Below are positions 1-16,627 of a stretch of DNA of 55,902 bases, piece by piece. Position numbers and translations under genes: made by a program. Where the stretch lies: the sequence record SRR20825006_1472. One strand, 5' to 3'. Position 1 is the first letter of the stretch, and each line of letters opens with the position of its first letter. The notes under the pieces were generated by a model. It saw only the letters and a program-made list of their open reading frames with translations. It had not been told where the DNA came from and made no database searches.

Positions 1-26
1 TCAAAAAAGAACTGATACGGTTGATC

Positions 27-47
27 CCAATAGCGGACATTGGAACC
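27..47 (+). repeat. Copy A of a 21-bp direct repeat bracketing the polyol module
   Basis: CCAATAGCGGACATTGGAACC matches 9333-9353 at 18/21 positions. Confidence 0.55.
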
Positions 48-279
48 TGAGTTTTTTCCGAGGTTGCAACATTGCAAAAAGCGCGACAATTAAAAGTGGG
101 TGAAACCGTTAATGCAACACAAAAACCAGTAATTTGGGCGACAGAAAATAATTTCTGCAAATGAGTTTGTTCATCATTTTCTTGAACCCTCTAAGAAATG
201 GATACATTCTACGATTATGTCGTGGTGAGTTCGCTATGGTTGTTAGAAAAGGCCTCAGCCTTCGATTACTGGGACAGCC

Positions 280-1248
280 TCACCGGACATGATCTGGTTC
301 AGAAGTTTTTCTCGCAACCGAATTTAGCTCATCGTCCCATGGCGGATTGGCACCAGAGCGCGAAACCGTTTTGCCCGCAACTATCGTGCCATAGCAAAGC
401 GCCTGTTTAACAATTTGCGGCGTGAGCGAGCGGAGATAATTTTTGTTCAACACCTCAAACTCCGACAATTTGGCAAGCACCCCTGCGTTAAACGTATCGC
501 CGGCGCCAATGGTATCGACTACGTCGACTTTGTTGATTGGAACTTTTACATTTTCGCCAGACGAGAGGAAACCTGTCGCACCCTTTTCACCTTCAGTAAG
601 GATAACTAGCGAAACACCCTTGCTCAGTAGGCCGAGTGCTTTATCGTGAAGCGAACGCCGAGTCTCGTCAATCCAGCTCAAATCATCATCCGAAACCTTG
701 ACGATATCGGCAATCCTAAAGATGCGTTCCAATCGCCTCCTATAGTTTGCAGCATCCTCGATGAAATCCGGACGAATATTTGGGTCAAGGAAGACTGGCC
801 GTCCCTTACCTTCACGTTCCAGCAACCGGGTGTAAGCTTCACCGCTTGGCTCGCTGGCGAGGCTGATGCCACCGCAGTAAAGCACTGAAATGTCAGATGA
901 TATTGGGGGCATGTCGTGAGGAAGCAACATGCGCCCCGCTGAATTCTCGTCATAGAAAAAGTAATTTGCTTGACCTTTGTTCAGTTCAACAAAGGCCAAA
1001 GTTGTCGGGCGGTCGGTAAAGATCACATGAGAGGAGTTTACATTTGACATGCTGAGCCTCTCGCAAAGCATTTGACCAAATAAATCGGTAGACAACGCTG
1101 TGAGCATGCCGGTCTCCACACCAAGCCGTCCCAACGCTATTGCTGCATTAAAAACCGCCCCGCCAGCGCGAGGCGCGAAGGCTTGCTCACTAGATATCGT
1201 CGACAGCGGTATCATGTCGATTAATGCTTCTCCGCAACATAATATCAT
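280..1248 (-). CDS. PfkB-family carbohydrate kinase (probable fructokinase)
   Basis: N-terminal GEALID, GGAVFN, and C-terminal DTIGAGDTF PfkB signature; last gene of the polyol cluster, whose dehydrogenases yield fructose. Confidence 0.9.
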   Translation of the reverse strand: MILCCGEALIDMIPLSTISSEQAFAPRAGGAVFNAAIALGRLGVETGMLTALSTDLFGQMLCERLSMSNVNSSHVIFTDRPTTLAFVELNKGQANYFFYDENSAGRMLLPHDMPPISSDISVLYCGGISLASEPSGEAYTRLLEREGKGRPVFLDPNIRPDFIEDAANYRRRLERIFRIADIVKVSDDDLSWIDETRRSLHDKALGLLSKGVSLVILTEGEKGATGFLSSGENVKVPINKVDVVDTIGAGDTFNAGVLAKLSEFEVLNKNYLRSLTPQIVKQALCYGTIVAGKTVSRSGANPPWDDELNSVARKTSEPDHVR

Positions 1249-1455
1249 CTACTTATATCTCCATTGAACTTGCGATGGTTGGTGTTGAACTGCTCATTGC
1301 ATAAACCCAATCTTTGAGTAGACGAATATGAAATCATCGTATGCAATCTGCTATTCAGCCACCAACGCGCGCCGCGCTCTTCCTGATGTTGCATACCGAA
1401 TTTGCCCCGCTTAGGCACCCGAGGTGCAACTGTATGTCTCTAGAGAGGCCTTAGT

Positions 1456-2952
1456 TTAACCGCCAAGATAGGTGTTGATGGCGACGCCCAGCCCTTTGTC
1501 CCAAATTATGCCTAGCCAGCGGTCAAAGGCATCGGAGAATTCAGTGACGCCTCCCAAATTACCGTAATATTGCCGCTGGGCGAGCCACGCGGTAGGGTCG
1601 TTCTTGCTGCGAATTGCCGAAACCTGAAGGCTTTCCCAGTTTGGATCATTTGGCTCGATCACGCTGCCATCTTCCCTAGTGCCTTCACACATACGTGCCC
1701 ATGCGGCTTCAACCAACGCCAATCCCTCAAATGGGGTACCTTTTGCAATCGCATCACGAAGTGACGGCATTATAAACCCTGGATGTCGTGATGATCCGTC
1801 GAAAGCAACTCGCCGCGTCGTGTCTTCGATCCGAGGGTTGCTAAAACGATATATGAGCTGCTCGACATATTCAGCTGGGCTTTTTCCAGGAACTGGCTGG
1901 ACATGCGGTGCGATTTCTTCATTTGCTACCTTGCCAAACAGTAATGCGATTTTTTCGTGCGCCATACAGTCGGAGATGGTCTCGATTCCGAGCAGCTCAC
2001 CGACATTTGCGATGATCTGGTGACCACCGTTTAGCAGGCGAATTTTCATTACCTCGTAGTCGTGAACATCTTTTGTGATTGTAGCTCCAACTTTTTCCCA
2101 TGCAGGCCGACCCGCGCAGAAATCATCCTCAATCACCCATTGGCGGAACTCTTCATGGGTAACTGGAACCGCATCGTCGACGCCTATTTCTTGCGCCAGA
2201 CGCAGTTCTTTCGGGCCAGTGGCTGGCACAATGCAATCGACCATCGAATTGGGGAAACTGCAATTCGCATCAATCCAATCAGCCAAATCGGGATCAGAAA
2301 GCCGTGCTAGCGACACCACAGTTTGACGCAAAATTTCACCATTTCCCTGCAAATTGTCACAGGACATGCCGGTAAACGGACCTGTTTCTTGTTTGCGGCG
2401 TGCCTTGAGTGCAGCGACCATGGCGCCAAATGCGGTCATTGGCCGGTCAGGATTGGCCACATCATGGAGAATATCGGGGTGACTGGCGTCAAACCCCTTT
2501 GTCGCTGGGTCAATGTAATATCCGCCCTCGGTCACGGTGAGCGACACAATCCTAATGTCAGGTTGACTCATCCGCTCGATCAGACCGGCATTATGCGTCT
2601 CGATAGGCACGTAGTCGATCATTGAACCGATCACCTCGGCCGAATTGCCAGACGGAACCAGCTCGATCAACGTTGTTAGGTAGTCCTGAGTCTCCATTTT
2701 CTTGCGTTGGTTTTCATCAAATGGACGAATACCGGCACCGACAATTGCCCAATCGAGGGCATCACCTCCCTGCATCAGCCTGTGCAAGTACCATGCCTGA
2801 TGCGCGCGGTGAAAGTTGCCTACGCCAATATGTAAAATGCCAGCACTTAGCTCGACACGATCATAATGAGGTCGCAGGACAGTCTTGGGTATATTGGGCA
2901 GCGTTACGTTATTAAGCTTCACCATTAGGGATTCCGACAAACGTTTCTCCAT
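1456..2952 (-). CDS. mtlK: Mannitol 2-dehydrogenase (long-chain MDH family)
   Basis: HIGVGNFHRAHQA, SLTVTEGGY, SCDN, FPNSMVDCIVP and K-RLLNGGH motifs; start uncertain (ATG 2952 overlapping the upstream stop, or ATG 2925). Confidence 0.9.
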   Translation of the reverse strand: MEKRLSESLMVKLNNVTLPNIPKTVLRPHYDRVELSAGILHIGVGNFHRAHQAWYLHRLMQGGDALDWAIVGAGIRPFDENQRKKMETQDYLTTLIELVPSGNSAEVIGSMIDYVPIETHNAGLIERMSQPDIRIVSLTVTEGGYYIDPATKGFDASHPDILHDVANPDRPMTAFGAMVAALKARRKQETGPFTGMSCDNLQGNGEILRQTVVSLARLSDPDLADWIDANCSFPNSMVDCIVPATGPKELRLAQEIGVDDAVPVTHEEFRQWVIEDDFCAGRPAWEKVGATITKDVHDYEVMKIRLLNGGHQIIANVGELLGIETISDCMAHEKIALLFGKVANEEIAPHVQPVPGKSPAEYVEQLIYRFSNPRIEDTTRRVAFDGSSRHPGFIMPSLRDAIAKGTPFEGLALVEAAWARMCEGTREDGSVIEPNDPNWESLQVSAIRSKNDPTAWLAQRQYYGNLGGVTEFSDAFDRWLGIIWDKGLGVAINTYLGG

Positions 2953-3725
2953 CAGCTCAACCATTGTCCGCCGTCTACATTGTAGGTTTGTGCGACGATG
3001 TAGTTGCTTTCGCTACTTGCGAGGAAAACCGCCATGCCTGTCAGGTCATCGGCCACGCCCATGCGACCAAAGGGAACTGCTTCGCCGACCTCTTTTTTCT
3101 TTTGCCCCGGGCGCTTGCCCTCATGTTTTGCAAAAAAAGCGTCCACGCCGTCCCAATGTTCGCCGTCGACCACGCCGGGGGCGATGGCGTTCACATTGAT
3201 CCCATGTGCAACTAAATTGAGACCCGCCGATTGCGTCAGGCTAATCACTGCCGCCTTGGACGCACAATAGACGGCGACAAGCGGTTCGCCACGCCGACCC
3301 GCCTGGCTGGCCATATTGATGATCTTTCCGCCCTGCCCGCGTTCGATCATGTGGCGCGCCACGGCCTGCATGGTGAATAGGGTGCCTGCGACATTGATGT
3401 CAAAGATAGTGTCGAAATCCGCGCGCGTGATATCAACAATTGGAGCGGCGGTAAACAAAGCCGCATTGTTAACTAGAATATCTATCTGCCCTAATTTTTC
3501 GACAGTTTCCGCCACAGCGGCGTTGATACTTTCCTGCTGGCTCACATCCATTTCGACTGCAATTGCTGTCTTTCCAATCTGGGCCACTGTCTTTTGGGCG
3601 CGGTCCATATCAATATCGGCGATTGCAACGCTCGCACCTTCGCGCGCATAAGCCTGAGCAAATGCACACCCGATACCTCGTGCGGCGCCAGTGATCAGAG
3701 CTGTTTTTCCCTTTAATCGCATCAT
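2952..3725 (-). CDS. smoS: Sorbitol (L-iditol) dehydrogenase, SDR family
   Basis: [17 protein letters not shown] catalytic motif, ASQAGRRGE, and C-terminal QTYNVDGG typical of SmoS/PolS. Confidence 0.9.
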
Positions 3726-4726
3726 TTGATCGCTTGTCCGTTTTGATCAAACCGATGCAATTTCTTCATATCGGGCGTCAGAAATACCGTGGCGCCGTAT
3801 GCGAGTTCAAGGTCACCGTCAGCACGCACCGTAAGCGGCTCATCCGATCCATCGAAATGCACATGCACAAACGTATCTGACCCAAGATGTTCGGAGACGC
3901 CAACAACCCCCTCCCATTCACCACCAGCTGCCGAAATTGACAAATGCTCAGGGCGGATGCCGATGGTATGCGCTTCATAATTTGCAGCAATTGTGCCGGA
4001 GAGAAGGTTCATCTTAGGCGAACCAATAAAGCCCGCAACGAAGGTATTGCATGGGTTATTGTAAAGCTCGAGTGGGCTCCCAACCTGTTCAATTACGCCT
4101 GACTGTAATACGACGATTTTGTCCGCCATGGTCATGGCTTCGACTTGGTCGTGTGTGACGTAAATCATCGTAGTGCCCATTTGCTTATGCATTTCGCTGA
4201 TTTCCAACCGCATGCCAACACGAAGTGCTGCATCCAAGTTCGAAAGCGGTTCGTCAAACAGGAAGGCCGAAGGATCTCGAACAATCGCCCGTCCAATCGC
4301 TACCCTTTGACGTTGCCCCCCCGAAAGTTGCCCTGGTTTCCGGTCTAGATAGTCGTTTAGGTTCAGTGAGGTTGAAGCAGCGTCGACACGCTTGTCGATT
4401 TCCGCCTGATCCATCCCTGACATCCGTAGGGGGAAAGCAATGTTCTTGCGTACCGACATATGGGGGTAAAGCGCATAGGTTTGAAACACCATTGCGAGGC
4501 CGCGTTTAGAAGGCGTGACTTCGGTGACGTCTTCACCATCAATAATCACTTTGCCAGACGTCGTGTTTTCCAGGCCAGCAATCAAACGCAGCAAGGTTGA
4601 CTTCCCGCAACCGGAGGGGCCAACGAAAACGACGAACTCACCATCCTCGATGGATAAGTTAAGAGGTGGAATGACTTCAGTATCGCCAAATGATTTGGTG
4701 ACATTTTCAAGTTTGATGCTTCCCAT
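3722..4726 (-). CDS. smoK: Polyol/sugar ABC transporter ATP-binding subunit
   Basis: GPSGCGKST Walker A, LSGGQRQR signature, [13 protein letters not shown]-terminal TOBE-like region. Confidence 0.9.
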
Positions 4727-4735
4727 TTCAATATC

Positions 4736-5572
4736 CTATTTCACAGCGCCAAAGGTCAGACCCCGGACCAATTGTTTTTGACAGAACCAGCCGAGCACCA
4801 CGATGGGTCCAATTGCGGCGGTAGAAACAGCGGAAAGACGACCAAAAAACAGCCCCTCCGGCGCGCGGTTGCCCTCGATTAGACTAGAAAGCGTAGCCGC
4901 GTCCGTTGTGGTCAACCTCACGGTCCAATAGGCCTCGTTCCAACAAAAAATAAATGTCAGTAGTGCGGTTGACGCGATGCCGCCCCATGCTAGCGGGATC
5001 AAAATCTCCTTGATTTCACCCCACATGTTCACCCCATCCATCTTACTGGCCTCGATGATTTCTTTCGGGATTTCCTTGAAATAGGAGAACAGCATCCAAA
5101 TAACAATCGGTAAGTTGACCAACATCAGCACAACAATTACGAGGAATTTTGTGTCATAGATTCCGAGAAAATTCTTGGTCAGGAACGTCATGGGGTAGAG
5201 AACTGCCGCCGCGGGCAACATCTTTGTGGACAGCATCCACATCAACACATCCTTGGTGGCGCGGCTCGGGTCGAACGCCATGGCATAGGCACAAGGTATG
5301 CCGACGACCAGCGCAAAGATTGTAGCGAACACCGAGGTGATGATCGAGTTGCCCGCAAAGCGCCAATAACTATAGTTATCGACCATATTTGCGTAATTCT
5401 CGAGCGTGGGGGTGAAGGTAAAGAGGAATTCCGGTTTCACTGCATCCGCGTCTGTCTTGAAGCTGGTGAAAACCAGCCAAAAAATCGGGAAGAACACGAT
5501 GATCGCCGTAACCCAGGCCATTATAGGCCAGAATATGCGGGAGAATCTGGATTGCTCTGCTACGATTGCCAT
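4736..5572 (-). CDS. smoG: Carbohydrate ABC transporter permease
   Basis: Multiple TM helices, EIIEASKMDG (EAA loop), C-terminal QKQLVRGLTFGAVK. Confidence 0.85.
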   Translation of the reverse strand: MAIVAEQSRFSRIFWPIMAWVTAIIVFFPIFWLVFTSFKTDADAVKPEFLFTFTPTLENYANMVDNYSYWRFAGNSIITSVFATIFALVVGIPCAYAMAFDPSRATKDVLMWMLSTKMLPAAAVLYPMTFLTKNFLGIYDTKFLVIVVLMLVNLPIVIWMLFSYFKEIPKEIIEASKMDGVNMWGEIKEILIPLAWGGIASTALLTFIFCWNEAYWTVRLTTTDAATLSSLIEGNRAPEGLFFGRLSAVSTAAIGPIVVLGWFCQKQLVRGLTFGAVK

Positions 5573-5577
5573 TTTCC

Positions 5578-6516
5578 CTACTCCATCAATGACTTGCTGA
5601 TCATTCTTAGAAGGAAGATCGCAAGGATATTGGCCAAAATAACCGCAAAGATGCCTGTCGCACTTGCAGCACCGATATTGTTAGTTGCCATTTCGCCGAT
5701 GAGATAAGGCAGGTTTTTGTTCCCGTTCCCGCGACTAACGATTTCGATTTCGGCATAAAGCGAGAGATGGAAAATCGCTTGAATCATCACCACAATCGAC
5801 ATTGGGCGCGCTAAATGTGGCAAGGTGAGAAAGCGGAACATTGACCATTTTCCTGCACCATCAAGGATCGCAGCTTCTTTCTGCTGCTGATCCTCTGATT
5901 GGAGCGATGTCATAAAAATAAGCACAGCAAAGGGCGTCCATTGCCAAGTCACCATCATGATCACCGCAATGGCAGACGTCTGCGAAGCGCGAAATGAAAT
6001 AGGTTCAAGTTTTGGCCAGAGTGAAAAGAACCATCCCACAAGCGGGGCATCTTGCATGCTGGCAACCATCTCATTAAGTCCACTTACAGCGATACCTTGC
6101 AAGCCGAGGACGGGATCAAGGATCATATTGATCCACAACACCGCATTCACCGCCGGCATAACAAAGAATGGCGAAATCAGCATAACCCTAACGATGCCCC
6201 TGCCCGGAAACGCCCTATTGACCAGCATTGCGATTGCCAAGCCAAAGACTACTGTTAAGGCGATAATCGATGTGACGATAAAAACTGAATTGTAAATTGC
6301 CAGCCAGAACCCGTCATTGTTCCAGACAAACACATAGTTTCCAAATCCACGCCAGTTCTCTATGCTGGGGCTAGTCCACTCTGGACGGTTTAAGCTCGCC
6401 AGAACATAGCGGATGAATGAAAAGAACAATGTCATACTAAGCGGCACAAGCATCCAAACTAAAAGCAGGATCACCGCCGGCGCCTGCAATAGACGCGAAA
6501 GCTTTCTGTCAGCCAT
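5578..6516 (-). CDS. smoF: Carbohydrate ABC transporter permease
   Basis: TM helices, WQWTPF, EAAILDGA loop; start placed at MADRK. Confidence 0.85.
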   Translation of the reverse strand: MADRKLSRLLQAPAVILLLVWMLVPLSMTLFFSFIRYVLASLNRPEWTSPSIENWRGFGNYVFVWNNDGFWLAIYNSVFIVTSIIALTVVFGLAIAMLVNRAFPGRGIVRVMLISPFFVMPAVNAVLWINMILDPVLGLQGIAVSGLNEMVASMQDAPLVGWFFSLWPKLEPISFRASQTSAIAVIMMVTWQWTPFAVLIFMTSLQSEDQQQKEAAILDGAGKWSMFRFLTLPHLARPMSIVVMIQAIFHLSLYAEIEIVSRGNGNKNLPYLIGEMATNNIGAASATGIFAVILANILAIFLLRMISKSLME

Positions 6517-6634
6517 TGGCTTACCCTTCACAATTCAGTGTTCTTTTAAGTTCATTTTCACTGCGTCGCTTGTCAAGCAGCCTTGGCTTGCGCCAAGGTC
6601 GCTGGAGAGACAATGCGTCGTGTTTTGCGGACGA

Positions 6635-6657
6635 AGGGCCCAGAAGAATTGGGCCCC
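6635..6657 (-). terminator. Stem-loop just downstream of the binding-protein gene (partial terminator or mRNA stabiliser)
   Basis: GGGCCCA-N7-TGGGCCC inverted repeat in the smoE-smoF spacer. Confidence 0.45.
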
Positions 6658-6679
6658 TCTTTCAAGTGGTGGGCACCAC

Positions 6680-7963
6680 TTACTCGTAGTAGCCTGCTTC
6701 TTTCATGATTGCGTCTGCTGCTGACTGCGCGTCAGCCAAAGCTTGATCTACAGATTTGGCACCGGTCAGAGCGGCAGCCATTTCTTGAGCCACAGCAGAT
6801 CCAACCTGCGGGAATTCGGGGATTGCCGCAAATTGCACACCAACATATGGTTTTAGATCAGTTGCCTCGGGCGCTGCGGATTTCAGTGCCGCCATTTCAG
6901 CTTCAGCAAAGTCCGCTGCTGCCAAGAAGTTTTGGTTGGCATATGTCGAAACACGGGTACCGGTTGGCACCGAACCCCAGCCGAATTCTGGGTGATTTCC
7001 CACAGCTTCAATGTAATCTTTGGAAGTTGCCCATTCGATAAACTTTTTGGCCTCATCAGCGTTCGGCGAACCTGCGGGCACAGCCATCGCCCACGCCCAC
7101 AACCAATTTGCACCAACAGGGTTGCCAGCATTGGGTGATTGCGCATATGCAACACCGTCAACTTCGAGGAACGAAGCCGCGATGGTGGCATCAATCCACA
7201 TCCCGCACTTGCCTTCATTGTAAAGCGCGAGAATCTCGTTGAATGAATTGCCTTCTGAACCTGGAGGGCCATATGTGCCGAGCAGATCAACATAGAAATT
7301 GATTGCGGCTTTCCATTTGTCTGAATCAATGGTTGGACGCATGTCTTTGTCAAACCACGCACCACCAAATGAATTCACGACGGTAGTAATGAACGCCATA
7401 TTGTCGCCCCAACCAGGCTTGCCACGCAAGCAAACACCATAAATCCCTTTGTCTTCATCATGAATGGCTGCCGCGACGGCTTTGATGTTATCCCAACTAT
7501 CATTGTCGGAAATAGTAACACCCGCTGCGTCGGTTAAGTCCTTGCGGTACATTACCATTGAAGATTCGCCATAAAACGGCGCAGCATAAAGAGTACCATC
7601 GTGTGACAAGCCGTTTCGGATCGGCTTCAACATGTCATCAATGTCATATGAGTCACTGAATTCAAGTGGTTCGATCCAGCCTGCACGCCCCCAAATTGGA
7701 GCTTCTTGCATGCCGATATTGATGATGTCGTACTGACCACCACCAGTTGCAGTGTCAGAAGTTACCTGCTCGCGCAGTACGCCCTCCTCCAATGAAACCC
7801 AATTCAATTCAACACCGGTTTCTTTGGTGTAGGCTTGAGCAACGGTTTGCATGTTGATCATATGCCCGTTGTTCACGATGGCAATGGTGAGTTCTTGAGC
7901 TTGCGCCGCAGATGCGACCAAGCCAATAGCGGTTGCAGCGCAAAGCGCTTTTCTAAAATTCAT
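6680..7963 (-). CDS. smoE: Polyol ABC transporter periplasmic binding protein
   Basis: Signal peptide MNFRKALCAAT..AQA after a GGAGG RBS; LTIAIVNNGHM, LRGKPGWGDNMA and WLWAW motifs. Confidence 0.9.
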   Translation of the reverse strand: MNFRKALCAATAIGLVASAAQAQELTIAIVNNGHMINMQTVAQAYTKETGVELNWVSLEEGVLREQVTSDTATGGGQYDIINIGMQEAPIWGRAGWIEPLEFSDSYDIDDMLKPIRNGLSHDGTLYAAPFYGESSMVMYRKDLTDAAGVTISDNDSWDNIKAVAAAIHDEDKGIYGVCLRGKPGWGDNMAFITTVVNSFGGAWFDKDMRPTIDSDKWKAAINFYVDLLGTYGPPGSEGNSFNEILALYNEGKCGMWIDATIAASFLEVDGVAYAQSPNAGNPVGANWLWAWAMAVPAGSPNADEAKKFIEWATSKDYIEAVGNHPEFGWGSVPTGTRVSTYANQNFLAAADFAEAEMAALKSAAPEATDLKPYVGVQFAAIPEFPQVGSAVAQEMAAALTGAKSVDQALADAQSAADAIMKEAGYYE

Positions 7964-8048
7964 ATTTTCCTCCCGTGAAATTGTCACTTCAATAGCGACA
8001 ACACAGGAGAAAGCGTAGACATAAACACTACGGCTGTCAATATAATAT

Positions 8049-8062
8049 TTTACGCGCGTAAA
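8049..8062. promoter_or_regulatory. Probable LacI-family operator of the polyol operon
   Basis: Perfect palindrome TTTACGCGCGTAAA with central CG upstream of smoE; degenerate copy TTATCGCGCGGAAA at 9168-9181 upstream of the regulator gene. Confidence 0.65.
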
Positions 8063-8093
8063 TTATTTAGCGAAAAGCTTTAAGTTCAGAAGG

Positions 8094-9125: not shown

Positions 9126-9332
9126 TGCGCAACGCCTCTTCAAAGTTTACCTAATTTTTACATTTTCTTATCGCGCGGAAAAGATCAACGATTATTTGCC
9201 CCTGAATTGTTGTCATTACTTGGAAACGGCGACAGAGCAACAGCTCCACTCTACGTTGTATGAAACCTAAACCAATATGCGGAATTCAACCCTAATTCCT
9301 CAGTAGAGGCTTGGTTGCATTTCAAAAAAATT

Positions 9333-9353
9333 CCAAAAGCTGACATTGGAGCC
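9333..9353 (+). repeat. Copy B of the 21-bp direct repeat
   Basis: CCAAAAGCTGACATTGGAGCC; a weaker copy CTCAAAGCAGACCTTCG follows at 9369-9385. Confidence 0.55.
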
Positions 9354-9493
9354 GTTTGATTTGAGTTCCTCAAAGCAGACCTTCGTCGGGCGCGTTGCCA
9401 GGTTTAGATTAAGGATAGCCCAAGGAAATCTAAACTCATCCCGAAATGGCGGTGGCTAGGCTATGCTTTGAGAGTCTTGACGATACGTACCAA

Positions 9494-10075
9494 CTACGAC
9501 ATCAAGTCCAATATGGCTTGTTCAAGCCGCCTATTTTTACCGTGAAAACTAGTAATCATTGCCTGCATGAAAATGTCAGGAACAATTTGGTCTTCGTTCA
9601 TGGTGAAGCCTGAATTGTTTAGAAGAATATCGAGCAGCGTAAGCTGGCAGCGCCCATTGCCTTCTCTGAAGGGGTGAATGGCGTTGACTTCAGCAATGTA
9701 GTACGCAGCACGCTCCGCAAAATGTGTTGGATCAGAAAGCCCGGCTAGGTGTTCTTCATTGTTGAGCTGTCTAAAAATATTAGTCATTTCGCCATCAATA
9801 TACTCGGGAAAGCAAAACCAGTTTCCACCTTTTCCAGTTCTGATTTGGCGGGATTGACCAGCCCAATCATATACATCCTGGAAAAAATGATGATGAATGC
9901 GCTTGTAATGCTCATAGTCGAAGTTACCGGTGGGTAGCGGTTCTTCCGCCCGCGTCAAATACATTAGTTGCTCAAATTGATCGAGCTCATCCTGATCGCG
10001 AAGGCCGGCCTTGTTTTTAAGAACTTGTGTACCCGGATAGCAAAGAGGATCTTCAGTTGCGCTATAGCGACTCAT
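9494..10075 (-). CDS. Class I Fic-domain toxin (FicT/VbhT-like)
   Basis: CYPGTQVLKN N-terminus, HPFREGNGR Fic motif; start overlaps the stop of a small upstream gene. Confidence 0.88.
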   Translation of the reverse strand: MSRYSATEDPLCYPGTQVLKNKAGLRDQDELDQFEQLMYLTRAEEPLPTGNFDYEHYKRIHHHFFQDVYDWAGQSRQIRTGKGGNWFCFPEYIDGEMTNIFRQLNNEEHLAGLSDPTHFAERAAYYIAEVNAIHPFREGNGRCQLTLLDILLNNSGFTMNEDQIVPDIFMQAMITSFHGKNRRLEQAILDLMS

Positions 10076-10290
10076 TAGCCCTGCTTGGTGGCAAACGAAC
10101 TAATGATTTCTTTGCGCAACGCATCACCTTTAAGCCCGCGGCGCTCCAGCCGCGAGATCAGGTCGCGAGAATCTGAATTCAAAGACATACCTTCGACCAA
10201 GGCGAATTTTGAAGCTTTCGCTTTGCCGAGGTTGGTTTGGATAAACCGCCCTGTAGATGCTTCGCGTTGTGTTTTTACGATCTTGCTCAT
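10075..10290 (-). CDS. Small protein, probable Fic antitoxin
   Basis: 71 aa, AGT-TCTCCT context upstream, translationally coupled (TAATG) to the Fic gene, contains ALVEG resembling the (S/T)xxxE(G/N) inhibitory motif. Confidence 0.6.
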   Translation of the reverse strand: MSKIVKTQREASTGRFIQTNLGKAKASKFALVEGMSLNSDSRDLISRLERRGLKGDALRKEIISSFATKQG

Positions 10291-10438
10291 AGGAGAACTT
10301 TACCACAATTTCGCAATTAAACGCAAAGGGATTAGCTGCACCCTGTCCCCAATTTGCCAATTGCATCATCACAGTGAGATAATAGGTTGCTAAATTTCGG
10401 AGTGCTGTGGTTGGAGGGTATGGTGAAAAGGACCTGTC

Positions 10439-11074
10439 ATGTCTGCTTCAACAAACCTACCAATGGTCATTCCATCCAATCGGGCCTGGAATCGTGGACG
10501 TATCATCGGCCAAAAAAGACCGCTTCAGCCCAAACATGTCTGGGCAATCCGCGTGCGTCTGGAAATTGCAAATGCGGTGAGAGACCTCGCACTGTTTAAC
10601 ACCGCAATCGACAGCAAGCTACGTGGGTGCGATCTCGTCAGATTGAAGGTTTCTGATGTTTATAGCGCCGGCGCCATCAAAGAACGTGCTTCGGTCCTAC
10701 AACGCAAAACCAAGTCACCAGTCAGATTTGAATTGACCGAAGGCACCAGAGCATCGCTCAAAGAGTGGATCGATGATCCCATAATAAGCGGCCACGGATT
10801 TCTTTGGCCTGGACGATTTCATGATCGACCCCATATTTCAACCCGACAATATGCCCGGATGCTCAAAGGCTGGGTTCAATCAATTGGTTTGGAACCAAGT
10901 GCCTATGGGACGCACTCAATGAGGCGAACTAAGGTCGCTCAAATCTGCAAGAAAACTGGAAACCTAAGAGCCGTGCAGTTGCTTCTAGGTCATACAAAGA
11001 TGGACAGCACTGTGCGTTATCTAGGAGTAGACCTCGAAGACGCTCTGTCGATATCCGAAAGTGTCGAGATTTAA
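10439..11074 (+). CDS. Small tyrosine recombinase (catalytic domain only, 211 aa)
   Basis: R (KLRGCDL), HSMRR, LLGH and RYL catalytic residues all present; AWNRGRIIGQKRPL N-terminus. Confidence 0.92.
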   Translation: MSASTNLPMVIPSNRAWNRGRIIGQKRPLQPKHVWAIRVRLEIANAVRDLALFNTAIDSKLRGCDLVRLKVSDVYSAGAIKERASVLQRKTKSPVRFELTEGTRASLKEWIDDPIISGHGFLWPGRFHDRPHISTRQYARMLKGWVQSIGLEPSAYGTHSMRRTKVAQICKKTGNLRAVQLLLGHTKMDSTVRYLGVDLEDALSISESVEI

Positions 11075-11194
11075 GCTTTGAACAAGGCCGACCCCGACAG
11101 TCGCCCCTCTTGGCTTTACGATCCATTTAGTTAGCAACCCAAAATAAGAGAACTACCGCAGAGGTTCAGCAACATCCAATTGCAGACTAGACTG

Positions 11195-11854
11195 CTACAG
11201 GTTCTTCTGCATCCCTGCGAGCCTCTGTTTTGTCATATGGAACCCGCCAAACTCAGCACGCGCGGTTAAGAACCTTACGCCTTCTTTTGTGGACAAATCA
11301 TTTTGCAAGCAATTCAAATTGGCGCTTTCATACCTTGCACCCAAAATGACCTCTTTGAGAACTGTAACTCTATTAAATGGTGCAAAATAATTCCCGCATT
11401 CAACAATGCAGTTTTCCAATTTGCGATGAAGCCTAACTTCGTCTTCGTATTGCCATTCTGCATGCTTAGAGCGCAGCATTCTTTCTACAAGGTCTTTTCT
11501 CTTGTCTGGAAACTGATCCACATCAAAGGGGGGCCGAATCCGATTTTCGATGTACACCATCGCCAGCATTAAGTGGTCGGGGACATCAAATCCAAGTGCA
11601 ATGCCTCTATGAGAATCCGCATAGTGCGCCCATAAAAGAGGTTGTTTCCAGTTTCTCGAGAACGAAATAATTCCCGACCCGTCAGATGCTATTTTGCGGA
11701 AATTGGTTGCCCAAGCTCGAACTCTTCTCTCACTCACGTCGAGCGACAAATATTCAAAAGGGTCATTCAGCTCATCAATAGGTGAAACTTTTATTCGCCG
11801 CTTGATAAGAGCTTCATGAGCCCAATGCGCCGGGTAGAATTTATATACTCTCAT
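11195..11854 (-). CDS. DUF2971-like protein
   Basis: LNDPFE, LLWAHYADSHRGIALGF, K..EWQYEDEVR and EVILGA motifs; start placed at MRVYKFY. Confidence 0.8.
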   Translation of the reverse strand: MRVYKFYPAHWAHEALIKRRIKVSPIDELNDPFEYLSLDVSERRVRAWATNFRKIASDGSGIISFSRNWKQPLLWAHYADSHRGIALGFDVPDHLMLAMVYIENRIRPPFDVDQFPDKRKDLVERMLRSKHAEWQYEDEVRLHRKLENCIVECGNYFAPFNRVTVLKEVILGARYESANLNCLQNDLSTKEGVRFLTARAEFGGFHMTKQRLAGMQKNL

Positions 11855-12071
11855 AACACATTCATAGCTTTGGCATAACTGCCGGGCAATCGACACAATC
11901 AAATGGCCACAGATTAATGCGGCAATAGTCCTCAGTGATAATTGACGGTAATCAACATAGCATTCCGGTAAACCATCATGCGACTCTCTTTGGAAGAGTT
12001 TAGCTTGTAGGTCAGTAAATAAACCAGCGTCGATCTATCCAATATTTAGAAAATGCGGAATCGTCGTTCGT

Positions 12072-12087
12072 GAACATAACGCAAACA
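12072..12087 (+). promoter_or_regulatory. Possible alphaproteobacterial LexA (SOS) box upstream of CBASS
   Basis: GAACA-TAACGC-AAACA, one mismatch to GAAC-N7-GAAC, about 60 nt before capV. Confidence 0.35.
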
Positions 12088-12148
12088 GATTTGAAGTTCA
12101 CTTCGCCTTGTAGTAGCCTTGAACTAGAATCAAAGAGAGATTTTTAAT

Positions 12149-13219
12149 TTGAAAACTTATCGGGTTTTGAGCATTGATGGCGGCGGCATGCGTGGCTACT
12201 ATAGCGCCGTGTATTTAAGCGCGCTCTCCAAGCGTTATGCAAAAGTAAGAGAAGTAGCCGAGCTGGATATCGGCAAGTCAGTGAATCTGATTGCCGGAAC
12301 GAGCACAGGCGCCATTCTAGCTTGCGCCCTTGCCAAAGGTGTTTCACTAGAGAAAGTAGCAAAGCTCTACAGGTGTAACGGTTCTAAGATTTTTCCGCAG
12401 AAAGTTCCTGACGGTATTAATTTTGACCTTGCTGTTCAATTGTGTCGACGACCTTCAATTATTGCGACTGGTGCTTCTGAGCTTGAGAGAGCTCTAACAG
12501 ATGAGTTGAAAGAGACTACCGTTGGTGACGTATGGCGTGATCGTGGTATCGCCCTAGCTATCCCCGCGGTCGAGATGTCAACCCACAAATCTTGGGTATT
12601 CAAGACACGGCATCTCCCGAACAGCAAAGATCGAGATGGAGGGTACAGACTAGTTGACGTCTGCATGGCATCGACTGCGGCGCCAGTTTATCGCTCGCTG
12701 GCCGCGATCGACAACCCGGATGACGACGACGGACACCTTGTGTTTGCCGATGGCGGCCTCTGGGCAAACAGTCCAGTGCTCGTCGGATTAATTGATGCGC
12801 TTGAGATGACGACAGCGGGCGACACTATCGAAATCTACTGCCTTGGAACTTGCCCACGGCCGGAGGGAACATCGCTTGCGAAGACCGATGTCAACATGGG
12901 GCTCGCCGATTGGAAGTTTGGCGCCAAAGTGCCAACAGTTGCAAACAGCGCTCAAGAATACGCATACTACAACATGGCGAGAATGATCGCGAGACATGTC
13001 GACCGCACTGTGAAGATTGTTCAGTTTCCGCGTGGGAGCATTTCGCAAAATCTCATGCCGTACCTAGATTTGGACGAAACCTCTCCAAGTGGGCTTGATG
13101 CGCTTCACAAGCAAGCAACAACGGATGCGTCCGTCGCGCTAAGTCAGTTTGGAGACGACAACAATGCTGAAGGGGCGGTCATGGATGCCTTCTTTAGGCA
13201 GGCGGCTGCAATTAATTAG
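12149..13219 (+). CDS. capV: CBASS patatin-like phospholipase effector
   Basis: DGGGMRG, GTSTG and DGG patatin motifs; directly upstream of a CD-NTase; TTG start. Confidence 0.9.
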   Translation: MKTYRVLSIDGGGMRGYYSAVYLSALSKRYAKVREVAELDIGKSVNLIAGTSTGAILACALAKGVSLEKVAKLYRCNGSKIFPQKVPDGINFDLAVQLCRRPSIIATGASELERALTDELKETTVGDVWRDRGIALAIPAVEMSTHKSWVFKTRHLPNSKDRDGGYRLVDVCMASTAAPVYRSLAAIDNPDDDDGHLVFADGGLWANSPVLVGLIDALEMTTAGDTIEIYCLGTCPRPEGTSLAKTDVNMGLADWKFGAKVPTVANSAQEYAYYNMARMIARHVDRTVKIVQFPRGSISQNLMPYLDLDETSPSGLDALHKQATTDASVALSQFGDDNNAEGAVMDAFFRQAAAIN

Positions 13220-13224
13220 AGGAT

Positions 13225-14268
13225 GTGAGAATGGAAGATTGCCACAAGGACTTCAACGCTTTCTATAGGGATGAAGTCGCCCTCGGCGAGGCTCAGCGGA
13301 CAGAAATGCGCCAACGTCGCGACACCAATCGCTCGAGCCTTAGGTCCGGTTTAGAACGCGATGAAGAGCCGGAGTCGATTGGCAGTGCATCTCAAGGCTC
13401 ATATGCGATGCGGACCATGATCCAAGACTCGGAAAACTGCTACGACATCGATGATGGGGTGTACTTTTCGAAAGCATCGCTAGTCGGCCCGAAAGGGGGA
13501 AACAAAACTCCTACTGAAGCGAAAGAGATGGTTAGGAAAGCATTGCATTCTAGTGCGTTCAACACGCCAGTAGCTGTCCATAAGAATTGCGTTAGAGTGC
13601 AGTACAACCAAGGGTACCATGTTGATGTGCCTGTATACCGCAAGATCGACGTGGACGAATACGGAAATTCGATAACACCGTACTATGAACTTGCTAGCAC
13701 GGTATGGAAGCGCTCCGATCCTCTCGCTGTAACGGAGTGGTTCAAAGAAGCATGTAAAGGAAGCGTCGACCTTTCTAACGGAACACAGCTGCGTCGTGTT
13801 GTACGGTTCCTCAAAAAATTCGCACAAAGCCGATCTAGCTGGAAAGGCTCCATTGCGCCCGGTTTTGCAATTAGCAAACTGGCTGTCGATAACTATCGCG
13901 GTGTTCAAGATCGTGATGACATTTGTTTACGTGAAACAATGACTGCCATTCGGGATGCGCTTTTTATAAATGAGAATATTGACCACCCAGTACTTGCAGG
14001 AGAAAAGATCATCGATGGCAGTACAGATGCAAGGTCGCGATTCTTACGTAGCAAGCTCACTTGGGCCCTTGAAAAGCTCGAAGGCCTCGACAAGAGAGAC
14101 TGTAAGCGCGCCGATGCCCTCGCTATCTGGGATCAAGTGTTCAACACTCAGTATTTTGGGAGCCGTGACGACAATACTCGTAAGAGCGTATCCTCTGCCG
14201 CTATCCTTAAAAGCGGCGAGGCACCTGACAAAGCGGTAAGTCTAGGTGGTGATCGGCGATACGGCTAA
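13225..14268 (+). CDS. dncV: CBASS cGAS/DncV-like nucleotidyltransferase (CD-NTase)
   Basis: SQGSYAMRT, YDIDDG and HVDVP catalytic motifs; C-terminal Gly (GGDRRYG); true start may be ATG 13231. Confidence 0.9.
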   Translation: MRMEDCHKDFNAFYRDEVALGEAQRTEMRQRRDTNRSSLRSGLERDEEPESIGSASQGSYAMRTMIQDSENCYDIDDGVYFSKASLVGPKGGNKTPTEAKEMVRKALHSSAFNTPVAVHKNCVRVQYNQGYHVDVPVYRKIDVDEYGNSITPYYELASTVWKRSDPLAVTEWFKEACKGSVDLSNGTQLRRVVRFLKKFAQSRSSWKGSIAPGFAISKLAVDNYRGVQDRDDICLRETMTAIRDALFINENIDHPVLAGEKIIDGSTDARSRFLRSKLTWALEKLEGLDKRDCKRADALAIWDQVFNTQYFGSRDDNTRKSVSSAAILKSGEAPDKAVSLGGDRRYG

Positions 14269-14270
14269 CA

Positions 14271-16115
14271 TTGAACAAGGGCTTACCACTCACTGCTCTG
14301 AATGAGCTCGAAAAATACATTATCTCTGATCTGAACGGATCCCCGCTAAGAGCTGACGTGGTTGGCTCATACAGAAATGGTGATCGGTTCAAACACGGGT
14401 GGGAAATTTGCATCGACTTTGAAGATGGCAGCAGTCAGTTGCTCCGAATTCTTGTTGCCGAGAGCTTTCCATTTTCACCTCCAGTGTTGGCGTTTCCCGA
14501 TGCAAGTCGATTTTTGGTTTGGCCACACGTGGAAGAAGACGGGCGATTGTGTCTGTTTACTCAAGCCACATCGATAAGTGCGAGTAATCCAGTCGGGGTG
14601 CTAGAGTGTCAGTTAAAGCACTTCGTTCGATATTATCAGGCTGCAAAATCTGGAAAGTTGCGAGACGATTTTATAGATGAATTTCTCTCTTATTGGGCAT
14701 GGGGAGTTGCGCAAAGTGAACTTGAAATCGTGTCTTTGCTGGATGTACAAGAGCCGAGTAGGAAGATCTTTGCGCATGTTGATGCCGCTAGGATCGTTTG
14801 TGCTGACACGAAGGACCATATTGTCGGTTGGTGCTTGCGTTACCAAAATAAAAGAATTGATCCAAGTAAGCTCGTTGTAGGTGTCCTGTTAGAGGTCAAT
14901 ACCCCCCCAACTCCGCCATATCCTAGATCGACGGGGGAGTTCTGGAACTACATAAGAGATGCTTCGCCGGCCGCCATTCAGCTTCTCAAGACCGTTGCTG
15001 AAGAGGATTGGCGAATTTTTCCGATCGTATTGAAATTCACCACACAATCAGGCGTTGGACTTGTTGGGATTCAGCTGCTGCAACGCCTGAAAAGCAACAC
15101 TTATAACCGTCGGGATCAAAGAGCCATCCCGGGATTTCGTCCTGGAAAGGCACCCGCCAGCATAATTGTCGAGAGACTATTAGCACCTTCACATGTTGTC
15201 GAACCCCTTAGGGTAATCCGTGCAGACCATGGATGGATTCATGGACGGGATCAAGATTCCGTGGCACGCGGATTATCAAACGCACGTGTAGCACTTGTTG
15301 GTTGCGGATCACTTGGGTCGGGTGTGGCTCGGTTGCTTGCCAAAAGTGGACTAGGGCACATGCTATTAGTTGACGACGACCTATTGGATTGGCCGAATAT
15401 CAGCCGACACGAGTTGGGAGCTAGGGGAATAAGAAAGTCAAAGTCTGAGTTTCTCTCACAAGAGATTCAAGAAAACTATCCACATCTTGAAGGCGTCAGT
15501 TACCACAAAAGCAAACTAATCCATCCGAGTTCTGAAATCGTGAAATCCATTTTAGGTTGTGATCTAATCGTAAATGCATCGGCTGATTGGCAGTGCGATC
15601 AATTTCTGGCACATCTCCAGAGCACGGTTGAAGGCTTTCCACCAGTCATTTACTCGTGGCTTGAGCCCGAAGCGCTTGCCGCACATGCGGTCCTTATCAA
15701 GTCTCGGTTCGACTCAATACTTGATGGGTTTGATCCCGTTGGACGGATGCATATTCCGATTTTAAACGATCAAAGCAATGGAGAAAAAGAACTACCTGGC
15801 TGTGCAGGAACTTTTTCATCATACGGATCAGTCGCACTTGGCCGGGCACAAAGCATGGTAGCAGAGGCTGCTATCATGGCCCTGCATGATCAATTCAGAA
15901 AATCGCTACATTTGGTTTCATTAGAGCGAATGAAGAATTTGAAAGAGCGGCGTGCTTCACCTAATCCCGAGTGGGTTGAACGGCATGGCCAGTATCCAGA
16001 GGCAGGTGGCATTTTAGAGCTGGATTGGAGAAAATCCCATAGGAGACCACCTAATGATCAGTGTCTGGATTGCCAATCGACGTCAACGCCTCACGTTCGA
16101 ACCAGGAGTACTTGA
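14271..16115 (+). CDS. cap2: CBASS Cap2 (E2-like plus E1/ThiF ligase)
   Basis: N-terminal FPFSPP..WPHVEEDGRLC (E2 Cys), C-terminal GCGSLGS, VDDD, NISRH and PGCAG (E1 Cys). Confidence 0.9.
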   Translation: MNKGLPLTALNELEKYIISDLNGSPLRADVVGSYRNGDRFKHGWEICIDFEDGSSQLLRILVAESFPFSPPVLAFPDASRFLVWPHVEEDGRLCLFTQATSISASNPVGVLECQLKHFVRYYQAAKSGKLRDDFIDEFLSYWAWGVAQSELEIVSLLDVQEPSRKIFAHVDAARIVCADTKDHIVGWCLRYQNKRIDPSKLVVGVLLEVNTPPTPPYPRSTGEFWNYIRDASPAAIQLLKTVAEEDWRIFPIVLKFTTQSGVGLVGIQLLQRLKSNTYNRRDQRAIPGFRPGKAPASIIVERLLAPSHVVEPLRVIRADHGWIHGRDQDSVARGLSNARVALVGCGSLGSGVARLLAKSGLGHMLLVDDDLLDWPNISRHELGARGIRKSKSEFLSQEIQENYPHLEGVSYHKSKLIHPSSEIVKSILGCDLIVNASADWQCDQFLAHLQSTVEGFPPVIYSWLEPEALAAHAVLIKSRFDSILDGFDPVGRMHIPILNDQSNGEKELPGCAGTFSSYGSVALGRAQSMVAEAAIMALHDQFRKSLHLVSLERMKNLKERRASPNPEWVERHGQYPEAGGILELDWRKSHRRPPNDQCLDCQSTSTPHVRTRST

Positions 16116-16533
16116 GCATTTTAAAGCAAATCGCCAGCTTGCTGTTTCCGCTACTGAAGCTGGTGGTCAGCTATTTGCGGCAATTGAGGGCAACGAAATC
16201 AAAGTCCGTGCAGCAACTGGACCATCGGCGTTAGATAATCGCTCACGCTATTCATTCGTGCCAAGTAATCTCGCCGCTCACATCTCCATCGCTACGATGT
16301 TTATAAAAGGACTTCACTACGTTGGTGACTGGCATACACACCCAGAGGACTGTCCGAGCCCATCCAACGACGACCGACGTAGTATTGCGGATACATATTT
16401 GAAATCAAAACACCAACTCGCGGGCATCATAATGGTGATTGTCGGACGATTGGATGTCCAACATGGGCTATACGTCGCAATTCAAGATGAAAATGGATTG
16501 CATGAAATCCGACTTCCCGACCAACAGATATGA
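16054..16533 (+). CDS. cap3: CBASS Cap3 JAB/Mov34 peptidase
   Basis: EAGGQLF and GDWHTHP..PSPSNDD JAMM motif; last gene of the operon. Confidence 0.9.
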   Translation: MISVWIANRRQRLTFEPGVLEHFKANRQLAVSATEAGGQLFAAIEGNEIKVRAATGPSALDNRSRYSFVPSNLAAHISIATMFIKGLHYVGDWHTHPEDCPSPSNDDRRSIADTYLKSKHQLAGIIMVIVGRLDVQHGLYVAIQDENGLHEIRLPDQQI

Positions 16534-16597
16534 ATGCGAAAAATGTGTCGATACGTCTGCAAACTACATTGAAATACACGGCTATGTGACACTGCTG

Positions 16598-16627
16598 AAC
16601 GTCCGCTTTCCGCCCATTGTAGTCATC
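16598..16627. repeat. Imperfect palindromic site at the right end of CBASS
   Basis: AACGTCCGCTTT-CCGCCC-ATTGTAGTCATC; the reverse complement of the left arm (AAAGCGGACGTT) matches the core of the 27/9333 repeats. Confidence 0.45.

Follow-up and report, generated by a model that had tools for sequence, protein, structure and literature searches.

Short motifs tied to a catalytic-domain-only tyrosine recombinase mark the blocks of a polyol and defence island

In the stretch of DNA analysed here (55,902 nucleotides of sequence record SRR20825006_1472; hereafter the window) a gene for a small tyrosine recombinase stands among blocks of unrelated function, and related short sequences lie at the junctions. 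The locus raises the question of whether these sequences are sites of that recombinase and whether, as an earlier note had proposed, they form an integron-like cassette system. The genes concerned are as follows.

280..9143, minus strand: polyol-utilisation block (Pfam: PfkB kinase, mannitol dehydrogenase, short-chain dehydrogenase, ABC ATPase, two permeases, solute-binding protein and LacI-type regulator)
9494..10075, minus strand: Fic-domain toxin, 193 aa (Pfam Fic, 67.4 bits; PADLOC PDC-S04, E 8.7e-69)
10075..10290, minus strand: 71-aa open reading frame overlapping the start codon of the Fic gene by 1 nt; its position makes it the presumed antitoxin
10439..11074, plus strand: tyrosine recombinase, 211 aa, catalytic domain alone (Pfam PF00589)
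11195..11902, minus strand: DUF2971 protein, candidate single-gene defence system PDC-S31 (Pfam; PADLOC E 7.3e-27)
12149..16533, plus strand: type II CBASS with patatin phospholipase, CD-NTase, E1-E2 (Cap2) and JAB (Cap3) genes (Pfam; PADLOC E 1.7e-90, 9.9e-128, 3.7e-151 and 5.7e-56)

The recombinase was placed in the tyrosine recombinase superfamily by its match to PF00589 over residues 44-197 (59.3 bits, cut-off 27.1). Its catalytic residues are intact, as had been claimed: R62, K90, H159, R162, H185 and Y194 are all present. In an alignment of 18 sequences five of these are invariant, H159 is kept in at least 90% and the mean column identity is 85%. It was also correct that the enzyme has no arm-binding domain; indeed no N-terminal DNA-binding domain of any kind was found, and 61 residues precede the first catalytic arginine. 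PMC8138268 describes ‘simple’ tyrosine recombinases as a core-binding domain (~100 aa, N-terminal) followed by a catalytic domain, and for want of such a core-binding domain the present enzyme falls outside that class. A profile search of the PDB gave matches to the catalytic domains of Xer proteins alone (residues 47-199 of the query correspond to 132-283 of XerD), and a phmmer search of the PDB with the recombinase gave none. The structure model, built from 18 close sequences, had a mean pLDDT of 41.9 and was unusable, so that the fold of the N-terminus could not be read from it. Scores against the integron-integrase model TIGR02249 (18.9 bits, cut-off 265), the XerC model (45.4 bits, cut-off 335) and the XerD model (27.3 bits, cut-off 330) were all below cut-off. 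Relatives are numerous, with at least 8,000 sequence clusters in a protein search and 368 plasmid records, including plasmids of Escherichia, Klebsiella, Vibrio and Pantoea. No published description of this family was found in the literature searched.

Comparison of related loci tied a motif of the GCGGAC type to this family. It lies 85-140 nt (~100 bp) upstream of the recombinase start codon in 51 of 80 loci, and at most loci a hairpin and then a related arm follow 3' of the stop codon. The enrichment near the recombinase family that the earlier note had predicted was observed: about 500 sites per Mb within 200 bp of the gene, 17-60 at 1-10 kb and 1.2-5.4 genome-wide, the last measured in five whole genomes of relatives. 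The motif is not an abundant repeat of these genomes, strict matches numbering only 4-21 per genome against 1-13 for a reversed control. When open reading frames within 5 kb were clustered for the 80 loci, no neighbour gene common to them emerged, the largest cluster covering nine loci. The motif and the recombinase family are linked. The recombinase presumably cuts at these sites, and the position of the crossover is likewise presumptive.

Within the window, the sequences in question are these.

24..47, plus strand: A-type site; centre ATCCCA at 24-29, 9-nt arm at 30-38 ending in GAC, then ATTGG; 14.0 bits; match to the strict pattern
9330..9353, plus strand: A-type site, left end of the recombinase unit; centre ATTCCA, arm at 9336-9344; 12.7 bits
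9366..9385, plus strand: B-type site; centre TTCCTC, arm at 9372-9380, then CTTCG; 14.9 bits, the best in the window
11165..11187, plus strand: weak A-like sequence, unconfirmed as a site; below 3 bits
16597..16624, minus strand: inverted site; arm on the cargo side, then centre CCGCCC; 11.4 bits

All five positions first claimed are intergenic, and the sequences at 27-47 and 9333-9353 do match at 18 of 21 positions in direct orientation. The pair is there, but its likeness taken by itself is at chance level, as nine direct 21-mer pairs with at least 18 matches occur in the first 20 kb of the window. That the sites are real is shown by independent evidence, a 13-nt matrix trained solely on other genomes, from the motif that precedes the recombinase there by ~100 bp. 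This matrix ranked 9373 first in the window, 31 second, 9337 fourth and 16596 on the minus strand joint fifth. The strict pattern AGCNGACMTTSG has three matches in the window (32, 9338 and 9374, all on the plus strand) where 0.11 are expected, a count reached in none of 100 shuffles. Matrix matches of at least 12 bits are less exceptional (four against 1.5 expected; 6.5% of shuffles reach four), and two of the six best, at 40349 and 41952, lie inside core open reading frames and are probably due to chance.

The proposed site at 11165-11187 was not borne out by the matrix and is backed solely by eye and position, its position corresponding to that of a double site in relatives (G013/L085), ~95 nt after the stop codon. 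Nor did the supposed shape of two arms and a short spacer survive: comparison gives instead a 6-nt centre and one 9-nt arm ending in GAC. Each window site has one clear arm. A mirror-image arm is present at some sites alone (GTC at the mirror position in 13 of 44), and mirror symmetry over full sites is weak, with a mean of 3.1 of 9 positions matching against 2.3 for the control. The centre hexamers differ among the window sites (ATCCCA, ATTCCA, TTCCTC and CCGCCC), so exchange between them would be hindered under classical homology rules. The first A site, which bounds the polyol block on its outer side, is separated from the contig end by 23 nt; window positions 1-45 recur, with two differences, at the end of a second contig in run X11. 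The B site, 36 nt after the second A site, is conserved in three further loci (L085, L086 and L087). The promoter region that separates lacI from the Fic pair includes positions 9333-9385. Rfam at its gathering thresholds gave no matches in the window.

The recombinase gene itself proved to be part of a discrete unit. In three genomes of two genera, copies of ~765 bp are 98.8-99.6% identical in unrelated flanks; their left border coincides exactly with the start of the centre hexamer and their right border with the 3' foot of the hairpin, directly after which the flank supplies the next arm. Units of 68-69 bp, in which the left end is followed directly by the right end, were also seen. The unit borders are well defined. 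The corresponding features of the window are given below.

9328..11093, plus strand: recombinase unit with cargo, comprising double site, Fic toxin, antitoxin, recombinase and the start of the hairpin
11086..11106, plus strand: hairpin, right end of the unit, directly 3' of the recombinase stop codon

The hairpin has seven predicted pairs, five of them with compensatory changes among 47 sequences; no hairpins were seen beside the A sites of the window. The greater length of the unit here, 1,766 bp rather than ~765 bp, is due to the Fic toxin-antitoxin pair, which it carries between its left-hand double site and the promoter of the recombinase. The toxin scored below cut-off with the NCBIfam models VbhT (134.9, cut-off 800) and PRK10347 (116.9, cut-off 181), and no family match is on record for the 71-aa presumed antitoxin, the scans having covered an 80-aa open reading frame in another frame. 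The whole unit recurs at 93% in G013:C2 and at 92% in G009:C3 and G006:C8, and G001 matches at 85% over 1.6 kb from 9492 on. Likeness to G013 starts at 9328, and that of an X6 contig to the window ends at 9333. In each of five relatives the unit is single-copy, with different surroundings in every genome. It is more conserved than core genes, at 92% against 78-89% in G006 and 85% against 71-73% in G001.

These borders bear on the reading that the motifs serve something else, such as operators for regulators or landing sites for IS110-type elements, and stand near the recombinase gene by accident. At three contig ends of G009 an IS110-family element does occupy an identical position within A sites, and the promoter location of 9333-9385 would suit an operator. 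Nevertheless, 51 of 80 loci, from several orders and with no conserved neighbour gene in common, have the motif at a fixed distance from the start of the recombinase, and near-identical units have their borders exactly at this motif; we regard another function as very improbable.

The sites also recur in series and at breakpoints. Upstream of the unit, the window, G013 and G006 each have A sites in one shared orientation, and a contig of another genome (G037:C26) carries seven sites within 19 kb, all on the plus strand. Site arrays exist. As had been anticipated, synteny breakpoints coincide with sites: among 15 endpoints, defined as internal ends of shared segments other than the recombinase, nine have a site within 40 bp, against ~10% expected. 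A 1.26-kb module adjoins A-type sites in both G006 and G009, in unrelated flanks. Between a shared GGDEF gene and the unit, G013 and G006 have unrelated content; the left border in G006 has no clean site, and the comparison is suggestive only. No recombination product and no joint linking any two sites was found on comparison of contigs, which drop rare forms, so that missing joints say nothing about excision. The contig joints listed all fall among the polyol genes, within 507-4737, the majority of them at 4039-4737 in the conserved gene for the ABC ATPase. An X1 contig runs from the 3' end of the recombinase into the DUF2971 gene at ~95%; this junction is retained there and the border is thus not always a breakpoint.

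The unit lies within a strain-specific island of at least 18.4 kb, whose left border is beyond the contig end and whose right border, at 18369, has no site. That siteless border would fit a reading in which the unit, once mobile, is now fixed in the genus, its sites are decaying scars and the island is the work of other processes such as insertion sequences, homologous recombination or phage-related insertion. One copy per genome in five relatives, the half-sites with differing centres in the window, and an IS110-family element and rve-type transposase in the corresponding regions of relatives all fit such a relic. Its gene is intact, though, with the strong catalytic conservation and column identity given above, and the unit outdoes core genes in conservation against G006 and G001 while its context changes from genome to genome. 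A relic is accordingly judged improbable.

To the right of the recombinase the cargo varies at a fixed relative position. The window has the CBASS, assigned to type II on Pfam and PADLOC matches to CD-NTase, effector, Cap2 and Cap3, together with PDC-S31 on the opposite strand; G013 has PDC-M30/M41 and a dGTPase, and L008 has PDC-S06 and a type II restriction-modification pair. Each is closed by the same inverted site, with an 18-nt pattern that the window site at 16597-16624 has in common with sites of three of 97 loci; the distance from the recombinase to this site is 5.0 kb in G013 and 6.7 kb in L008. Different cargo thus occupies the same place in the three loci. In two pairs of relatives shared segments are inverted and lie on the other side of the recombinase, at 5.5 kb against 0.7 kb from it.

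Opposed sites around a defence block recall FimB and FimE, tyrosine recombinases of ~200 aa, about the size of the present enzyme, which lack the usual N-terminal domains and invert one promoter element. An analogous switch would flip the segment between a plus-strand site (9330-9385 or 11165-11187) and the inverted site at 16597-16624 and so toggle defence expression. The similar enzyme size, the bracketing of defence cargo in the window, G013 and L008 and the inverted segments in two pairs of relatives agree with this. The opposed sites differ in their centres, however; what they bracket is no promoter element but 5-7 kb of cargo (5.5 kb in the window) that has genes of its own; a simple flip leaves the change in distance unexplained; and the inverted form is absent from the contigs. 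Such a switch has very little likelihood. The missing N-terminal domains and the short repeats near the enzymes’ own genes are points of likeness to FimB/FimE, whereas in the present family whole units are mobile, direct repeats surround the gene and the site arrays are dispersed.

There remains the integron-like system itself. Integron cassettes are mostly promoterless, single-gene and in one orientation behind a common promoter, and attC sites consist of paired inverse-core and core motifs in a bulged hairpin. The locus shares with integrons a tyrosine recombinase beside an array of short, co-oriented sites that divide modules unrelated to one another, as well as precise unit borders and a 3'-terminal element of the unit that forms a hairpin. 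A true platform of this kind, with a resident recombinase adding cassettes serially at a fixed primary site by its gene to give an ordered array, is supported by the A sites that precede the gene in one orientation in the window and in two relatives, the seven co-oriented sites of G037:C26, the 3' hairpin, defence cargo that varies at a fixed relative position and the 68-69-bp units, which resemble empty cassettes. It is opposed by the recombinase gene being itself site-bounded and moving, by an enzyme that is not IntI (18.9 bits against 265) and has no N-terminal DNA-binding domains, and by sites built as centre then arm, unlike attC; no common promoter or primary site was found, and the window’s A sites have no visible hairpins. 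The modules, moreover, are multi-gene, on both strands and self-regulated, unlike single-gene cassettes in one orientation. The polyol block comprises eight genes with their own LacI regulator, and orthologues of 1464-9188 (75-79%) occur elsewhere in the genomes of G008 and G001, with no sites beside those operons; it need not therefore be a cassette. Of the earlier proposal, then, the sites tied to the recombinase, enriched near it and placed at breakpoints stand, as do the site-marked edges of the modules; the fixed platform does not, and cassettes in the strict sense are put in doubt by the regulators, the strands and the siteless polyol orthologues. An integron-like platform appears unlikely.

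It is rather probable, in our view, that GCGGAC-type motifs are recombination sites of minimal tyrosine recombinases, that the island was built at such sites and that the flanking blocks can be moved in trans. The motifs would be the sites of a very large family of catalytic-domain-only recombinases, with neither core-binding nor arm-binding domain, and the recombinase gene with its sites would make a compact, self-mobile unit whose retention the Fic toxin and presumed antitoxin would favour. The polyol block at its outer end (24-47) and the DUF2971 and CBASS block at its own (16597-16624) are marked by further sites of the family. Repeated site-specific insertion or exchange at these sites is the most likely means of assembly; the flanking blocks would be non-autonomous, site-bounded modules that the recombinase could move in trans, and the polyol and CBASS blocks may still be moving.

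Other module-moving systems offer partial parallels. In the pdif modules of Acinetobacter plasmids, dif-like 11-6-11 sites used by the host XerC/XerD flank resistance and toxin-antitoxin modules. Short recombinase sites likewise bracket discrete modules here, toxin-antitoxin pairs included, in varied contexts, but the enzyme is a dedicated one of 211 aa that moves together with sites of its own. Streptococcal ICEs and cis-mobilisable elements form tandem modules by repeated insertion at one att site, modules without an integrase being moved in trans; their integrases are large, with arm-binding domains, and their targets are tRNA genes or gene ends. Tandem, site-separated modules and mobilisation in trans are the likeness, and an autonomous element the size of an insertion sequence is the difference. 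The IS1111-attC group of IS110-family elements targets integron attC sites, much as the G009 element occupies one fixed position inside A sites, although that is a secondary element using the sites and not the recombinase system itself.

More tentatively, and with some doubt, this may be a distinct system apart from integrons and Xer: an IS-sized element with centre-arm sites and a hairpin at one end, which inserts itself, shuffles modules in trans and builds defence and metabolic islands. Its modules would then range from an empty unit of ~70 bp to a 5-kb defence system or a 9-kb metabolic operon, and it might be a main island builder in marine Alphaproteobacteria and, by way of related enzymes, in many bacteria besides these. 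As the sites are short and well defined, the role of the recombinase is directly testable. If the enzyme acts on them, this would be, to our knowledge, the smallest self-contained site-specific mobile unit, and a minimal recombinase with a ~24-bp target could serve as a tool. If true, it would give bacteria a simple route for swapping defence systems, toxin-antitoxin pairs and catabolic operons without integron or phage machinery.

Collinearity with contig C4 of G013, the closest genome compared, runs from 18369 to about 54.8 kb of the window at 93–95% identity, and G013 carries other genes to the left of the 18369 junction. On this comparison positions 1–18368 form an island relative to that genome. 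The island and its surroundings are laid out as follows, A and B being two types of putative recombinase site in which a 6-nt centre hexamer is followed by a 9-nt arm ending in GAC.

24–47: A-type site
280–9143 (−): polyol-utilisation block, eight genes (PfkB kinase, mannitol dehydrogenase, short-chain dehydrogenase, ABC ATPase, two permeases, solute-binding protein, LacI-type regulator)
9330–9353 and 9366–9385: double site, A and B respectively
9494–10075 (−): Fic toxin
10075–10290 (−): 71-aa ORF overlapping the Fic start codon
10439–11074: tyrosine recombinase, 211 aa
11086–11106: hairpin
11195–11902 (−): DUF2971 protein (PADLOC candidate PDC-S31)
12149–16533: type II CBASS operon
16597–16624: inverted site
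16630–17000: AT-rich stretch without family matches (41% GC in the 16–17 kb bin; no ORF matches)
17016–18131: Maritalea-plasmid-like segment (92.5% like part of the plasmid; 89% like G013:C4:73938-75039)

The last segment is annotated in the Maritalea plasmid as a glycoside hydrolase family 104 protein; no Pfam match was obtained for the window ORFs in 16630–17000 and 17016–18131. A second, larger Fic-domain protein (18369–19913, −, 514 aa; PADLOC candidate PDC-S24, E 2.8e-199) sits exactly at the start of the G013 collinearity. In sequencing run X11 the contig holding the window likewise begins at window position 1, and a second contig of 21.5 kb ends in a copy of window 1–45 with 2 differences, so the A site at 24–47 is at the edge of sequence present at least twice in that genome.

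The sites were first noticed as two 21-mers, 27–47 and 9333–9353, in direct orientation. The pair is present and 18/21 identical, but this figure proves nothing alone, since nine direct 21-mer pairs at ≥18/21 occur in the first 20 kb. Related recombinase loci were therefore compared, namely the best 80 of more than 553 relatives in a species-representative genome collection (72–90% identical, from several orders of Alphaproteobacteria). No neighbour gene was conserved across the 80 loci, the biggest neighbour cluster comprising 9. In 51 of them a motif containing GGCTC, with an arm ending in GAC after it, was found 85–140 nt ahead of the recombinase start codon, and a 13-nt matrix was trained on the arm part of these 51 instances, all from other genomes, with the window excluded. 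In the window this matrix ranked 9373 first, 31 second, 9337 fourth and 16596(−) tied fifth; the remaining two of the six best matches, 41952(−) and 40349(−), fall within collinear-core ORFs and probably arose by chance. The strict pattern AGCNGACMTTSG has three window matches (0.11 expected), all within the sites first noted. The matrix count is weak on its own, as four matches of ≥12 bits were found vs 1.5 expected and four were reached by 6.5% of shuffles; the weight rests on the identity of the top matches. A further site proposed at 11165–11187 scored below 3 bits. On this evidence the sites are real.

Enrichment of the sites near this recombinase family, which the earlier note had predicted, was borne out. 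The 80 loci (1.28 Mb) gave 201 matrix matches of ≥12 bits vs 33 in a shuffle. Strict-pattern density was about 500/Mb within 200 bp of the gene, 0 upstream and 17/Mb downstream at 200–1000 bp, and 17–60/Mb at 1–10 kb, and the reversed strict pattern came to 2 matches in total. In five whole genomes the strict pattern matched 4, 21, 19, 19 and 8 times, or 1.2–5.4/Mb (reversed control 1, 4, 13, 8 and 8), far below the density around the gene, and the possibility that the sites are an abundant genome-wide repeat was thus rejected. The A-site pattern gave 9–20 matches per genome vs 5–11 for its control. Close to each recombinase the three nearest sites are tightly grouped. The sites are thus tied to the recombinase and clustered around its gene.

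In most loci a GC-rich hairpin lies 3′ of the stop codon and is followed immediately by another arm. Seven pairs are predicted, five with compensatory changes, in a set of 47 sequences picked by eye and not blind, namely the window plus 46 loci out of 80 (L061–L080 and 14 others being omitted). The gene, its bounding sites and the hairpin make up a unit of about 765 bp that recurs almost unchanged: loci L042, L058 and L051 are 98.8–99.6% identical across 765 bp, and L046 and L072 99.2% across 764 bp. Between copies in different genera the identity extends from the centre hexamer of the upstream site, exactly at the left, to the 3′ foot of the hairpin, and these near-identical copies define the borders; their left flanks differ, as does the arm 3′ of the hairpin. 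Sorted by the hexamer that precedes the arm, 1,438 matrix matches of ≥9 bits included 70 of left-end type, 99 of hairpin-foot type and 53 of a third type, the chance expectation for each being about 0.5–0.9%. A mirror-image left arm is only partly present: 13 of 44 sites have GTC at the mirrored position. On these comparisons the recombinase unit is a mobile element.

Measured from each left end to the right end that follows, unit lengths concentrate at 753–762 bp (11 cases, the recombinase unit), and shorter units of 68–69 bp (3 cases, L063), 140 bp and 419 bp look like gene-less miniatures. In the three L063 cases (8092–8160, 15998–16067 and 18395–18464) a left-end site directly abuts a hairpin-foot site with no gene, and these resemble the recombinase unit reduced to a non-autonomous miniature. 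A second small hairpin is seen 30–50 nt upstream of the recombinase start in L023, L027, L029, L043 and others, directly before a purine-rich ribosome-binding stretch; by eye, both its sides co-vary between loci, and it may have a role in expression control. In the window (10390–10438) this hairpin is less distinct. For many family members the metagenome contig is only some 1 kb long, which is what a repeat unit that interrupts assembly would produce. A second recombinase copy, 65% identical and with an in-frame TAG, is present in one genome (G004:C1:107050-107667).

Synteny breakpoints were also found to coincide with the sites, as had been proposed. Segments clear of the recombinase that loci share at ≥85% identity have 15 internal endpoints, and for 9 of these one or both partners had a matrix match of ≥10 bits no more than 40 bp away, where about 10% was expected; one locus-end endpoint was omitted from this count, two endpoints are common to pairs and one of the pairs represents a recombinase copy that is truncated. 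Examples are L038 vs L078 and L042 vs L064, the latter being two strains that part directly after a site matching window 16597–624 in type.

In the window the unit measures 1,766 bp (9328–11093). All of it is present in G013:C2 (93%), and 9342–11074 is found in G009:C3 (92%), 9356–11074 in G006:C8 (92%) and 9492–11091 in G001 (85%), with both flanks unrelated in every case. The unit is closer than the collinear core genes in G006 (92% vs 78–89%) and G001 (85% vs 71–73%), and the recombinase gene is single-copy in each of the five relatives searched. The G008 copy is without the Fic pair, and the likeness of a contig from run X6 to the window ends at 9333. From this recurrence, the G008 copy and the X6 end point, the window unit has acquired the Fic pair, which lies after the left double site and ahead of the recombinase.

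Pfam assigns recombinase residues 44–197 to the catalytic domain, with R62, K90, H159, R162, H185 and Y194 conserved. Scores with the NCBIfam Xer and integron models were far below their cut-offs, and a family profile run against the PDB matched only Xer catalytic domains (E 5e-5 to 5e-4; query 47–199 vs XerD 132–283). The enzyme thus lacks the N-terminal domain of the 'simple' tyrosine recombinases described in PMC8138268. Public sources name the recombinase only generically, and no published description of the family was found in full-text literature searches.

The sites also occur in arrays. In the window these are 24, 9330 and 9366 plus the inverted site at 16597; G013 has A sites in the same orientation at L094 4710, 6101 and 8738 (with a B site at 8738), a weaker double site 3′ of the hairpin and an inverted site at 15510, and G006 has A sites in the same orientation at L096 1560, 2962 and 10174. 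The cargo between recombinase and inverted site differs: DUF2971 (PDC-S31) and CBASS in the window, PDC-M30/M41 and a dGTPase in G013, and PDC-S06 with a type II methylase–nuclease pair in L008, where the core gene hemY is next. G006 and G009:C5 share a 1.26-kb module at 82% identity, made up of a small ORF and a DNA-alkylation-repair-like gene. Two A sites enclose it in G006; in G009:C5 it adjoins two tandem A sites and a partial one, and the flanks are otherwise unrelated.

Three contig ends (L097 1–1362 in G009:C3, L098 1–1363, L099 1–1363) carry copies, 100% identical, of a 1,362-bp repeat that encodes an IS110-family transposase (DEDD and Transposase_20 domains). The repeat occupies one fixed position within A sites; split A-site halves flank the C3 copy, and the C2 and C8 copies diverge directly after the half-site. 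It looks like an IS targeting A sites. IS1111-attC elements target integron sites; the G009 element would seemingly do the same with A sites.

Several observations tell against mobility of the polyol and CBASS blocks. Polyol orthologues in G008 and G001 (75–79%, window 1464–9188, without pfkB) are at other locations, with no sites within 1.5 kb. Among the matches listed for G013, G006 and G009, none was to the polyol operon except ABC-ATPase paralogues, so the operon is accessory in the genus, which is compatible with its gain as well as its loss. G012 has a site of the inverted-site type next to a contig end (L089 1–140, G012:C67), and a polyol-type transporter operon begins 460 bp downstream of it; the G012 recombinase copy is likewise near a contig start (G012:C65:107-789). 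No site was found at the island's right border, its left border is beyond the contig end, and the centres of the window sites differ from one another. The earlier proposal of a cassette array stands in part: the sites are real and the recombinase unit is mobile, and the enzyme may act at the sites and move the modules. Judged on sequence, the cassette-array idea is plausible and partly supported.
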